Sequence record: OL631482.1
From: Escherichia phage ECML-359
DNA: 64,000 nt
Strand: one strand, 5' to 3'
Part shown: positions 4,901 to 63,031 of the stretch, piece after piece
Numbering within the stretch: the first letter of the stretch is position 1
How the letters are laid out: each line of letters begins with the position of its first letter
The notes under the pieces: model-generated
Seen by the model: the letters and a program-made list of their open reading frames with translations, nothing else
Told to the model about the DNA's origin: nothing
The model's database searches: none
Translations under genes and position numbers: made by a program

Positions 4901-5156
4901 CTCATTCAATTGTAATAGCTAATTTGACTTTAACAACCTTATAATTGGAATCAAGGTCATTGAATTCCATAAAATTTGTTGCTAATCTGCGAGTCGGGAA
5001 ACTTAGATATTTATTATGCTCAGGTGGAGCAGTTAATGCAAACCATGGGACTTGTTTATCATTTTCATCAAACTCATCAAAGCTATAAACCAGCTCGTTG
5101 TTGGTTATATCCATAACTGCATATGATTCACTAATAACCATAATATCCTCGGTAAT

Positions 5157-5233
5157 TGGTCGGGGTGGTGGGATTCTAACCCACAACCTACGGTTTAGAA
5201 GACCGTTGCTCTATACAATTGAGCTACACCCCG
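5157..5233 (-). tRNA. tRNA-Arg (anticodon TCT)
   Basis: Hand-folded cloverleaf: acceptor CGGGGTG/CACCCCG, anticodon loop CTTCTAA, T-arm GTGGG-TTAGAAT-CCCAC, encoded CCA. Confidence 0.85.
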
Positions 5234-5309
5234 GGTGGCCCCATCCGGACTTGAACCGGAAACCTGCCAGTTATGAGCCGGATGCTCTAACCAATTGAGC
5301 TACAGGGCC
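5234..5309 (-). tRNA. tRNA with CAT anticodon (Met by anticodon; the T4 counterpart with CAU is tRNA-Ile)
   Basis: acceptor GGCCCTG/TGGGGCC, D-arm GCTCAATTGGTTAGAGC, anticodon loop CTCATAA, T-arm CCGG-TTCAAGT-CCGG; directly abuts tRNA-Arg. Confidence 0.8.
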
Positions 5310-5314
5310 TAAAA

Positions 5315-5584
5315 TTAAATTACAAATCCAGCGGGAGCATTATCATCTTTAACCATATGCTGAATTGTATGATAAGTCATTTCTTCTGGTGCAACCAGAT
5401 AAGCCGCCGTATTAACCAACGGGATTAATTTGACTTTATTGAATGTTGAACAACCAATTGACATAAAGGTTTCACCTGTTGGATGCTGAATTTCACCAAA
5501 TTGGCACTCATACGAAATAGAGCAACGTTTGGTAGTGGTTGTCTTTGTTTTAGGGTCGTAAAAAGCTAATTTTAATACTAACAT
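5315..5584 (-). CDS. hypothetical protein
   Basis: 89-aa ORF immediately upstream of tRNA genes on same strand. Confidence 0.5.
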   Translation of the reverse strand: MLVLKLAFYDPKTKTTTTKRCSISYECQFGEIQHPTGETFMSIGCSTFNKVKLIPLVNTAAYLVAPEEMTYHTIQHMVKDDNAPAGFVI

Positions 5585-59900: not shown

Positions 59901-59920
59901 AAAAGGGCCGAAGCCCTTTT
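59901..59920 (-). terminator. hairpin terminator after gene 30
   Basis: aaaagggccgaagccc followed by tttt. Confidence 0.55.
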
Positions 59921-59921
59921 G

Positions 59922-61454
59922 TTATTTTAATCCAGTCTTTGACCAGTCGCCAAATACATCTTCGAATGTGTCTGCATGGTCTTTATCAAAACGGAACCCT
60001 TTGATAATCGACAGGAACAATGCAACCGTATTATCTTTACGAGTCTCGGAAGTCAACCAACCATTGCATTCACAGTCGGCAATCATTCCAACCAATTCAC
60101 CTTTACGTGCTTTAACCATCAAGGCTTCACGGTCCATTTCATGACGCTCCTCAATCGGAATAGTAACCCATTTTTTGGTTTTCTTATCTTTGACTTGAGT
60201 TGTGTCTTTAAAACCAGAACCACAGTTATTTGTAATCTTACCACAAGAAGAACGAAGCACCACACCGCCAATCTTATTCGGGTCTTTATCGTGCTCGTAA
60301 TATCCAATGATTTCCATTGCAATGTCAATTACTTCTTTGAACTTATACAGGTTCTTTGAGCGCTTGTTTTCCCAAATCGATGCCATGTTCTTAAGGATAA
60401 TACCTTCAAGGCCTTCATCCACGTATTTCTTATAGATAACTTTCGCTTCATCAAGATTGTTAACAACATGGTTTTCAATCAGAATCATGCGGTCAAAACC
60501 ATGCAGCACCACGTTATCTGCAATCATCTTTTCCAGAACAGCAAAACGCACATCGTATTTCAACGGATTGAGAATCTTAACATCAGAATAGACTTCAATC
60601 AGCGGAACATAATCCCAAACCTGGAATTTCATACAAGAAGCTTCTGCTGCAGAAATAGTTCCTTTCAATGATTTGTTTGCCATACCATTTGAAAAGGTTC
60701 TTGATTCAGCAGTTTCTTTTGCAGGAGCAATCTCATCTGAATCGTCAAAAAGGAAGCCCAAACCGTCATTCTGGGGAGCTATTTTCTGTTCATGGTATAC
60801 TAACTCGCCATCAATTAAAACGCCCTCAGGATGTCTCTCGCGCGCTTCACGAGTAGCTTCAATCAATTCCTTTTTAAGGAGGTCAAGCTTGAGGTACTCA
60901 TTTCCGGCTCGGGATAACAATCGAACATCATCCAACTCATCGCCGCGAACTTCTGCAAAACACCGAGCGCCATCGGCTTTCAATTGTGCAAAGGCCGGGA
61001 ACTTAATGTTCTTAGCAATACCAGCTTCATCATAAGAAGAAGCGAGCATCTGCGGTTGTTCAGGAATTAAACCTTTCCAAACCTTATTCGCAATTGATAC
61101 AGATGCACCACATTCCAGGTCACGCATCATCACACGCCGCAAGACTTCAACATCGGCCTTTTTACCATCTGCAATATAACCAGATAATTCCTCGATTGCC
61201 GCATTACCTGTTAATTTGCGAGAGGCTAATGTGAATTCGATAAAGTCAAGCATATCATCGATATTCAACATACCAAAGCTTTGAGTCGTTGCCCCAGGTT
61301 TTGGCCATTTCTTTATATAGAACTGGATGCCTTTGGAATATGTCAAACGATACACGCGTTTAAGGGTTTCATTATCAGAATACGATTCTAAGATAGCTTG
61401 TTTCTCTTTAGTAGAATCGGTTGCAGCAATTTCATTTAAAATATCTAAAATCAT
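59922..61454 (-). CDS. 30: ATP-dependent DNA ligase gp30
   Basis: MILDILNEIAATDSTKEKQAILES...; adenylation motif KADGAR; 510 aa. Confidence 0.95.
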   Translation of the reverse strand: MILDILNEIAATDSTKEKQAILESYSDNETLKRVYRLTYSKGIQFYIKKWPKPGATTQSFGMLNIDDMLDFIEFTLASRKLTGNAAIEELSGYIADGKKADVEVLRRVMMRDLECGASVSIANKVWKGLIPEQPQMLASSYDEAGIAKNIKFPAFAQLKADGARCFAEVRGDELDDVRLLSRAGNEYLKLDLLKKELIEATREARERHPEGVLIDGELVYHEQKIAPQNDGLGFLFDDSDEIAPAKETAESRTFSNGMANKSLKGTISAAEASCMKFQVWDYVPLIEVYSDVKILNPLKYDVRFAVLEKMIADNVVLHGFDRMILIENHVVNNLDEAKVIYKKYVDEGLEGIILKNMASIWENKRSKNLYKFKEVIDIAMEIIGYYEHDKDPNKIGGVVLRSSCGKITNNCGSGFKDTTQVKDKKTKKWVTIPIEERHEMDREALMVKARKGELVGMIADCECNGWLTSETRKDNTVALFLSIIKGFRFDKDHADTFEDVFGDWSKTGLK

Positions 61455-61746: not shown

Positions 61747-62567
61747 TTACCCCCTTGGCCACCGGTCGGTTGATTGTACCAGTATTCAATACCAGTACCT
61801 ACACGCTGGCCATATTGATATGGATATGCTGGATTATATCCAGGAGTCCACGGTTGACCAGGCTGCCAGCCTTGCTGCATTTGTTGTTGAAGGCGTCGAG
61901 TTTCACGAAACAGCTCTTCCAGTTTACGGAGTTCATCTGGAGTGAATTCTGGTTTGACTGGTTCATCTTTGTGTTTCAGTTTAAGCTGTCCAGCAACATC
62001 GTCCCAATTAAAAACTTTGGAAGCTGTTTTAGGAATAGCATCACGTTCGCCGCGGGCCATCCAATAAACCGGAACCTCAAGAATTTCACTCGCATGGTCG
62101 CAATGGTGTGCAAGGTCATCAATATAACAAATGACATTATATTTGTCTTTTGCCTTCTGAAACAAATCCTCTTTAGAGGCTGTATGGCCACACATCATCA
62201 CTTCTTTAAACGCTCCAGGGAACAAAGCATTCAGGTTAAATTGACGATTCAAGCGTGCGTCAATGGAATCACCCAGGGCTGTAACAGCCACAAAATCATA
62301 TTGCTCTTTGAGGTTATTGATAACCCTTAATGCATCCGCATAAGGAGACAAATAGCGAATAAAGTCTGAACAGTTATATTTTTCAATTAACTGCGCGCCT
62401 AACTCTTCATCACAATTGAAAAGTTTACCAGGGGTCACAAATTTTTCGTCCTGAATCATCTTAAGGATATGTTCCAGGGGTAAATTATATTTTTGAGCGA
62501 AATAAGGTAAGCCAGACTGCCATGACAAACATACGCCATCAATATCTGTTAAAATAACGGGTTTCAT
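61743..62567 (-). CDS. HAD-superfamily phosphatase-like protein with Q/P/Y/G-rich C-terminal tail (30.2 position)
   Basis: N-terminal MKPVILTDIDGVCLSW (HAD motif I); low-complexity C-terminal 60 residues. Confidence 0.65.
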   Translation of the reverse strand: MKPVILTDIDGVCLSWQSGLPYFAQKYNLPLEHILKMIQDEKFVTPGKLFNCDEELGAQLIEKYNCSDFIRYLSPYADALRVINNLKEQYDFVAVTALGDSIDARLNRQFNLNALFPGAFKEVMMCGHTASKEDLFQKAKDKYNVICYIDDLAHHCDHASEILEVPVYWMARGERDAIPKTASKVFNWDDVAGQLKLKHKDEPVKPEFTPDELRKLEELFRETRRLQQQMQQGWQPGQPWTPGYNPAYPYQYGQRVGTGIEYWYNQPTGGQGGN

Positions 62568-63031
62568 AATGCATCTCTCAATTGGTTAAGTATGTCAATA
62601 AATTCTTGTTCAGTCAATATTGTATCATGAACAGTAAGGTGGCTCGCCATCGAATGCTTTAAAACTTTGCCTTTTGTGGATTGTAACGCATTGCGGAATC
62701 CTTGGTTCTGGAGCGCTGCTTCAAAATATGCATTTGTATACAGCTCTTTCCATGCTGCAGAGTATCTTGAAAAGGGAATTCCAAGCCAGAAAAGCGTCCC
62801 ACGGTCCGCAGCTCTTGCATAAGCTCTTCCACTTTGCTGGGCGGCCAATCCGGACATCCCAAATATACGTTTTTGTTGTTCATGATTTCTCACCTTGCAC
62901 CCTTGTAGGAAGCCTTCAAGACCTCCAAACTGGATACCCTCCATAACAAAAGGCCATTTAGCAAAGTTACTTAATGCACATGATGGCCATGGGAAATTGC
63001 TTCTGATTTCTAACTCAGACATTTTTGACAC
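62564..63031 (-). CDS. NADAR/YbiA (DUF1768)-like protein (30.3 position)
   Basis: SNFAKWPF...EGFLQGCKV resembles the YbiA-family SNFAAWP...EHYFQAQKF core. Confidence 0.55.
   Translation of the reverse strand: MSKMSELEIRSNFPWPSCALSNFAKWPFVMEGIQFGGLEGFLQGCKVRNHEQQKRIFGMSGLAAQQSGRAYARAADRGTLFWLGIPFSRYSAAWKELYTNAYFEAALQNQGFRNALQSTKGKVLKHSMASHLTVHDTILTEQEFIDILNQLRDAL

Follow-up and report, generated by a model that had tools for sequence, protein, structure and literature searches.

The closest described relative of the gene considered here is gene 30.3 of bacteriophage T4, now named adfN ("anti-DarT factor NADAR"). The gene lies in a stretch of 64,000 nucleotides from Escherichia phage ECML-359 (sequence record OL631482.1), the whole of which is referred to as the window, and very probably encodes a minimal, single-domain ADP-ribosyl glycohydrolase of NADAR fold that counters the DarTG1 defence, as T4 AdfN does. 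Phage NADARs were recognised computationally by the group of Aravind before any experiment; the family, fold, chemistry, and anti-DarTG1 role were predicted between 2012 and 2022 and shown experimentally for the T4 ortholog in 2024–2025. Johannesman et al. (2025, Nat Commun) mapped the DarTG1 resistance of T2 and T4 to 30.3 by means of RB69 x T2/T4 chimeras and renamed the gene adfN (PMC11825919). Deletion of adfN makes both T4 and T2 sensitive to DarTG1, and ectopic AdfN-T4 fully rescues RB69, which is sensitive because a frameshift truncates its gp30.3 (PMC11825919). The frameshift in RB69 is a one-base insertion that removes 15 residues and the last helix and reduces activity; full AdfN activity depends on the C-terminal helix (PMC11825919). 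DarT1-modified DNA loses its ADP-ribose (ADPr) upon treatment with purified AdfN, but not with the E36A variant, which is inactive in vitro, and in vivo E36A and K43A give only partial rescue (PMC11825919). The T4 protein hydrolyses guanosine-ADPr and not thymidine-ADPr in vitro (PMC11125620, PMC12945103), and all NADAR families, the T4 enzyme included, also strip guanine-linked ADPr (G-ADPr) from RNA in vitro (PMC12945103). A T4 transposon screen (HIDEN-SEQ) described in a preprint finds a loss of 30.3 insertions that is specific to DarTG1 hosts (bioRxiv 10.1101/2025.11.20.689424). According to the published study and the preprint, adfN is non-essential on plain K-12, its deletion phenotype is confined to DarTG1 hosts, and the T4 and T2 alleles are the only ones demonstrated to make an infecting phage resistant to DarTG1 (PMC11825919; bioRxiv 10.1101/2025.11.20.689424).

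Other anti-DarT factors of the T-even phages have folds unrelated to AdfN. AdfM, the T4 Tk.4 macrodomain, acts on thymidine-ADPr and counters DarTG2, while AdfA (gp61.2) is a stoichiometric DarT1 binder; AdfN, AdfM, and AdfA are parts of one layered T-even counter-defence. A search of the window for other T4 genes related to ADP-ribose (tk.4/adfM and nudE) found none. AdfN-Bas32 from a T5-like phage and AdfN-Bas60 from the Vequintavirinae are likewise phage NADARs, guanine-specific, and active against DarTG1. In contrast to AdfN-T4, they belong to other, independently acquired NADAR clades, do not depend on the T-even context, and counteract DarT1 in uninfected cells as well.

Judged by sequence, the window gene and T4 gene 30.3 are orthologs, because the two products are 84% identical over 152 of 152 aligned residues with 0 gaps, the window protein matches both the T4-derived Pfam family and phrog_652 (E=8e-50), and the gene order is that of T4. 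The Pfam family is PF08010 (Phage_30_3, "Bacteriophage protein GP30.3"), which is matched over its full length (profile positions 2-138 of 138) with E=1.1e-62 and 210.3 bits against a cutoff of 36. The substitutions between the window and T4 proteins number 25 in 152 residues and are mostly conservative, with 143 of the 152 positions scoring positive. The local order, gp54, alt.-3, alt, DNA ligase (gene 30), 30.1 (DUF3045), 30.2, 30.3, 30.4, 30.5, 30.6, and 30.7, places the gene in the T4 slot between 30.4 and 30.2. The window is of Tequatrovirus type; several T4-like phages of Escherichia and Yersinia match the surrounding ~2.4 kb at 98-99% identity, the best nucleotide match being Escherichia virus TH40 at 98.8% over 2.4 kb. 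Like AdfN-T4, the window protein is colinear over 152 residues and has E36, K43, the phage-type His, and the C-terminal helix. The loci differ in these substitutions, in the divergent neighbouring Alt of the window, and in its lack of alt.-1, alt.-2, and alt.1, and nothing in these differences suggests another function.

The open reading frame (ORF) at 62564..63031 on the minus strand has 155 codons from a GTG, and its product begins MSKMSELEIRSNFPWPSCALSNFAKWPFVMEGIQFGGLEGFLQGCKV. Three codons 3' of this GTG (63031) is an ATG at 63022 that is invariant in all five T4-like phages of a start-region alignment, whereas T4 and one further phage (locus L016) lack the GTG. T4 30.3 is annotated from the conserved ATG, and database homologues start with MSELEIRS. 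Because the ATG is invariant, the GTG is not conserved, and T4 is annotated from the ATG, the adfN coding sequence most likely starts at 63022 and predicts 152 residues rather than 155. Residues are numbered here from the ATG as in T4, which is the 155-residue numbering minus 3. The stop of 30.4 overlaps the start of 30.3 by 8 nucleotides (ATGTCTGA), and the stop of 30.3 overlaps the ATG of the downstream 30.2 (ATGA); both arrangements are the same in T4. A scan for promoters and terminators around adfN found such sites to be no more numerous than in shuffled sequence. Within adfN, in another frame, lies a 74-codon ORF (62659-62883, minus strand), the counterpart of gene 30.3' in the T4 annotation ("internal translation in a different reading frame"). 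Neither the window phage nor T4 interrupts this frame, and the two versions are 59% identical, which is about what passive conservation under 84% main-frame identity predicts.

The NADAR/YbiA superfamily is the wider family in which the window protein, as a full-length PF08010 member, is supported to belong; PF08010 is regarded as its "phage NADAR" branch (PMC11125620, PMC11543638). A profile built from ten gp30.3 homologues was compared by hhalign with one built from eighteen YbiA homologues, all of PF08719, and 131 columns aligned at 93.7% probability and E=1.9e-7. When the gp30.3 profile was run with HMMER against all PDB sequences, the sole match was YbiA (2b3w, E=0.0013). Some PF08010 members, drawn from a search of 1.84 billion protein representatives, match PF08719 across the whole domain at scores below the gathering threshold (E=1.6e-4 and 3.8e-4), and some YbiA homologues carry precomputed matches to both families. 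The remote homology thus extends across the whole domain, and the resemblance of the phage protein to YbiA, as seen in these profiles, is far beyond chance. The predicted structure has the NADAR fold, an α-helical core flanked by small β-hairpins, and fold comparison ties it to YbiA as well as to a pair of NADARs with crystal structures (PDB 8bau and 8bat), with 18% identity to YbiA over the structural alignment.

These results bear out the preliminary description of this DNA, which had reported an ORF of 155 codons with the motifs SNFAKWPF and EGFLQGCK and had assigned it to NADAR/YbiA from its likeness to the YbiA core motif. Both motifs are present, and the YbiA motif quoted there was accurate, as E. 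coli K-12 YbiA, fetched and translated, carries FSNFAAWPIKVDGKTWPTSEHYFQAQKF. The family assignment agrees with the PF08010 match, the hhalign and PDB profile comparisons, and the fold comparison, which links the predicted structure to YbiA in line with the structural check that was proposed.

The residues that characterise NADARs are conserved in the window protein. In the family alignment the S, N, F, and A of SNFA are invariant and correspond to the SNFA of YbiA in hhalign, HMMER-to-PDB, and MAFFT alignments; in both proteins the catalytic Glu lies 18 residues after the Ser of this motif. Glu36 is invariant and Lys43 nearly invariant in the family, and they align with E48 and K55 of YbiA by hhalign and by protein alignment. 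The third catalytic residue, on the last β-strand, is a Glu in YbiA-type, an Asp in DarG1-type, and a His in phage-type NADARs (PMC11125620, PMC11543638, PMC11825919). The window protein has the E-x6-K pair of Glu and Lys and, as its third residue, the phage-type His. Its C-terminal helix is intact in both the alignment and the AlphaFold 2 (AF2) model; RB69 gp30.3 (137 residues) ends in DDTILT, whereas the window protein runs on through EQEFIDILNQLRDAL in the T4/RB69 protein alignment. The positions of these features and of the neighbouring genes are collected in Table 1.

Table 1. Features of the adfN locus in the window (residues in T4 numbering unless stated otherwise)
Feature	Position	Strand	Remarks
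adfN / gene 30.3 coding sequence	62564..63022	-	152 residues + stop; conserved ATG, PF08010
SNFAKWPF motif, Ser18-Phe25 (ATG numbering)	62948..62971	-	N-terminal NADAR signature, equals YbiA SNFAAWPI
EGFLQGCK, with catalytic Glu36 and Lys43 (E39 and K46 in 155-residue numbering)	62894..62917	-	read from sequence
His123 codon (H126 in 155-residue numbering), last β-strand "LKHS"	62654..62656	-	invariant in family alignments
C-terminal α-helix, ~residues 138-152, EQEFIDILNQLRDAL	62567..62611	-	AF2 helix H141-154 (155-residue numbering)
Upstream neighbour, 30.4 homologue, 70 residues	63015..63227	-	phrog_2042 E=1e-34
Downstream neighbour, 30.2 homologue, 274 residues	61743..62567	-	66% identity to T4 gp30.2; phrog_420
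alt, ADP-ribosyltransferase, 686 residues	57803..59863	-	ADPrib_exo_Tox E=2e-19; 2.7 kb downstream of adfN

The DarG1 antitoxins (BC4488 family, with the G. lovleyi NADAR, PDB 8bat, and the E. coli C7 NADAR) are encoded together with DarT1, have an N-terminal extension, and carry Asp at the third catalytic position. In contrast, the window protein is an orphan, lacks the extension, and has His at this position, and DarG1 is not replaceable by the T4 protein in uninfected cells. A cognate DarTG1 antitoxin would have DarT1 next to it and the N-terminal extension; this candidate was rejected, as the gene is flanked by 30.4 and 30.2 and the sole ADP-ribosyltransferase nearby is Alt. The window protein comprises the core domain only, with 152 residues against 189-219 in crystallised NADARs. 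It is therefore an orphan, antitoxin-like enzyme and not a component of a toxin-antitoxin system. YbiA (NADAR/DUF1768, PF08719, PDB 2b3w) is a housekeeping protein of a LexA operon linked to riboflavin intermediates; it is ~18-26% identical to the window protein, and its last helix is preceded by an additional Gly-rich insert that the phage protein lacks.

The proposed mechanism follows the one described for T4. Infection would free the toxin DarT1 of the host DarTG1 toxin-antitoxin defence, and DarT1 would then ADP-ribosylate guanines in the phage DNA and block replication. AdfN, expressed during infection, would cleave the N-glycosidic guanine-ADP-ribose bond by means of Glu36, Lys43, and the phage-specific His123, and the restoration of unmodified DNA would allow the phage to replicate. 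The preliminary description had suggested reversal of DarT-type guanine ADP-ribosylation as a counter-defence, and exactly this has been demonstrated for the 84%-identical T4 ortholog (PMC11825919). The present analysis establishes orthology, synteny, the NADAR fold, and the integrity of the catalytic residues and the C-terminal helix. By analogy, the activity of the T4 protein and its anti-DarTG1 phenotype can be expected with high confidence to carry over to the window allele.

Several points weigh against this interpretation. The Pfam NADAR model PF08719 gives no match to the window protein at E<=1, so that of the profile search against NADAR proposed in the preliminary description, the part concerning PF08719 itself failed and the sister family PF08010 was found instead; the phage branch has its own Pfam model. 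A single-sequence phmmer search of the window protein against all PDB sequences found nothing, and an NCBIfam search returned noise only. The link to the NADAR superfamily is one of profile and fold comparisons. In the sequence alignments His123 pairs with H126 of YbiA, next to E125, which is a one-residue offset from the published register. Functional support for the window allele would come by way of the T4 protein, from which it differs at the 25 positions noted above. Uninfected cells gain no protection from DarT1 through AdfN-T4, whose help to the non-T-even phages T5 and Bas25 is weak. Because of these two observations, the picture of a free-standing eraser is incomplete, and a factor or context specific to T-even phages is needed for AdfN-T4 (PMC11825919).

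A general proposal that precedes the experiments holds that the main substrates of such proteins are soluble ADP-ribose derivatives, NAD-derived immune signals, or ADP-ribosylated RNA, and not DNA. The removal of G-ADPr from RNA in vitro by NADAR families including the T4 enzyme is consistent with this, as is the failure of AdfN-T4 as an antitoxin in uninfected cells. However, ADPr is directly removed from DarT1-modified DNA in vitro, the genetic requirement is DarTG1-specific in the published study and in the preprint, and the phage family has no demonstrated soluble substrate. As a substitute for action on DNA by the window protein this proposal is improbable; soluble or RNA substrates could be an added role rather than a replacement.

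Alt modifies protein arginines. The preliminary description had noted that Alt is encoded in the same segment, which holds, as the window Alt has the ADPrib_exo_Tox domain and is alignable with T4 Alt over its whole length at 35% identity (E=2e-126). It had also paired Alt as a "writer" with the NADAR protein as an "eraser", in which case the latter would remove ADP-ribose originating from Alt (or ModA/ModB), either to regulate it or to clean off-target modification from phage nucleic acids. The position of alt, 2.7 kb downstream of adfN on the same strand, fits such a pair, and so does the overlap at the genome level, where 1221 phage records have an Alt homologue and 1509 a gp30.3 homologue, with near-equal counts in Escherichia, Shigella, and Acinetobacter. 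This wide co-occurrence is explained by the fact that both genes are widespread in the Straboviridae. Three genes, ligase, 30.1, and 30.2, lie between adfN and alt. For a test of proximity, jackhmmer searches for 30.3, 30.2, ligase, and alt were run on 37 loci bearing gp30.3, which came from T4, the window, six annotated phages of distant lineages, and 29 IMG/VR records. An alt gene was found within 5-6 kb of the NADAR gene only in loci of T4 order (Tequatrovirus and Lazarusvirus); Mosigvirus shows alt in the same order according to the RB69 annotation. There was no alt within this distance in Slopekvirus, Tulanevirus, Schizotequatrovirus, Gelderlandvirus, Innesvirus (a Rhizobium phage), and some eight lineages known from metagenomes. 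The conserved T4-type gene order therefore accounts for the adjacency, as about a dozen distant NADAR-bearing lineages have no alt nearby.

The known chemistries also differ. Characterised NADARs act on N-glycosidic ADPr on guanine, and in some families on cytidine, in nucleic acids (PMC11125620, PMC12945103), and no demonstration of NADAR action on arginine-linked protein ADP-ribose was found in the literature. The adfN deletion phenotype is restricted to DarTG1 hosts, the gene being dispensable on plain K-12. Proximity was thus rejected as evidence of a functional pair of Alt and NADAR, and such a pair is improbable, slightly more so than a soluble substrate. No specific functional link between alt and adfN was found, and alt is a syntenic neighbour. 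The window Alt is itself very divergent but colinear; its counterparts in T4 and RB69 are 35% and 34% identical to it, respectively. Alt proteins of the window type (>=95% identity) occur in about 30 of the 1221 phage records, and 1177 of these records show less than 60% identity. With T4 alt.-1, alt.-2, and alt.1 absent, the window has alt immediately between alt.-3 and the ligase gene.

Defective natural alleles of adfN are known, and the window allele might in principle be an inactive remnant like that of RB69. Besides the RB69 frameshift, an IMG/VR locus (L021, positions 5001-5369; IMGVR_UViG_2974741249_000001) has an allele of 122 residues with a 33-residue in-frame deletion that removes SNFA and Glu36. 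This allele is presumably inactive and would represent a second type of defect. The window ORF, however, is of full length and keeps all invariant residues and the C-terminal helix, it still overlaps 30.4 and 30.2 in the way the T4 gene does, and its substitutions are mostly conservative. A remnant is thus very improbable. Hardly credible at all is a housekeeping role like that of YbiA, as an N-glycosidase of riboflavin-pathway intermediates, since YbiA identity is just 18% over the structural alignment, the YbiA-defining Glu context is swapped for the phage-type His, the published phylogeny places T4-type NADARs closest to DarG1 and not YbiA, and the genetic phenotype is DarTG1-specific, so that published data disfavour it.

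For AdfN as a DarTG1 counter-defence enzyme, one conceivable source of the T-even factor is the coupled gene 30.2. The window gp30.2 gives no match to Pfam, its family being without a Pfam model, and its profiles retrieve nothing significant from the PDB. Its single-sequence structure model is too poor for use (predicted local distance difference test score, pLDDT, of 35). The residues D8, D10, K132, and D151 are invariant in 19 of 19 homologues, which is a HAD-like pattern. A few homologues are named "HAD superfamily"/HAD hydrolase or "5'(3')-deoxyribonucleotidase" in their sources, and an Acinetobacter homologue matches Pfam HAD (E=1e-3) and NT5C (E=0.02). The protein is thus probably a HAD-superfamily phosphatase-like protein; it consists of a HAD-like N-terminal domain of ~195 residues and a variable C-terminal tail rich in Q, P, G, and Y, which has several indels relative to T4 and is missing entirely in many homologues of 200-220 residues.

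A HAD-type 5'(3')-nucleotidase-like phosphatase that acts with the NADAR protein or localises it would be in keeping with the ATGA overlap of 30.3 and 30.2 in the window and T4, with the retention of the HAD-like invariant residues, and with the position of 30.2 directly after NADAR in Tequatrovirus, Lazarusvirus, and Slopekvirus. In addition, the NADAR gene of the KVP40-like Vibrio phage phi-pp2 (L005, 6007-6961) is followed by a bona fide NT5C-family HAD, a 5'(3')-deoxyribonucleotidase (Pfam E=4e-11). The neighbourhood in phi-pp2 is gp47/gp46 and not ligase/alt, and the combination in an unrelated neighbourhood therefore suggests a NADAR-HAD module. Against it, 30.2 does not adjoin NADAR in the majority of distant lineages, two of which have ligase directly next to NADAR. 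The phi-pp2 HAD aligns to 30.2 by hhalign only over a 23-residue motif I region, and no relatives of this NT5C neighbour occur in the other compared loci. In its passage on DarTG1, the transposon screen names only 30.3 as conditionally essential (bioRxiv 10.1101/2025.11.20.689424). A conserved two-gene module was accordingly rejected, since 30.2 is adjacent in some lineages only and the phi-pp2 HAD is related by motif I alone. That gene 30.2 supplies the T-even factor is a long shot, and gp30.2 is treated as genomic context. Ten other genes that lie beside NADAR in distant lineages were scanned against Pfam and yielded an HD domain, a glycosyltransferase, a CCA/poly-A polymerase, and VWA, and no recurrent ADP-ribose-related partner. 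In RB69 (L038, 10225-10268) the gp30.3 frameshift also removes the stop/start overlap with 30.2 and leaves a 42-nucleotide gap, and the translational coupling of 30.2 may be altered there.

Two further observations concern the ligase region. The DNA ligase (59922-61454, minus strand) has 510 residues against 487 in T4. The 58 nucleotides that separate the stop codon of ligase from the start of alt contain a perfect 8-bp GC-containing palindromic hairpin at 59901-59920 (AAAAGGGC-CGAA-GCCCTTTT), which has a terminator-like form on both strands.

Homologues of gp30.3 number 1389 cluster representatives at E<=1e-3 in the library of 1.84 billion proteins. Larger metagenomic proteins of 465-559 residues (P0144, P0166, P0221, P0245, P0259, and P0264) also carry gp30.3-type NADAR domains. 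One of the larger proteins is fused to a BspA-type leucine-rich repeat and one has a weak FtsW/RodA-like membrane region, while others have tandem or partially duplicated NADAR stretches. In GenBank nearly all records with an adfN-type gene read "hypothetical protein", and at least one, from an Acinetobacter phage, reads "Member of NADAR superfamily. Similar to phage T4 Gp30.3".

As adfN is already published and is a routine component of T4-like genomes, the window gene has limited weight as a discovery. Its value lies in annotation, since the allele can be named adfN and is predicted to be functional. With a functional adfN, the phage would be expected to resist E. coli that carry DarTG1, and the status of adfN is thus relevant to the choice of T4-like therapy phages and to host-range prediction. 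The gene also touches the question of why T4-type AdfN works only in T-even infection.

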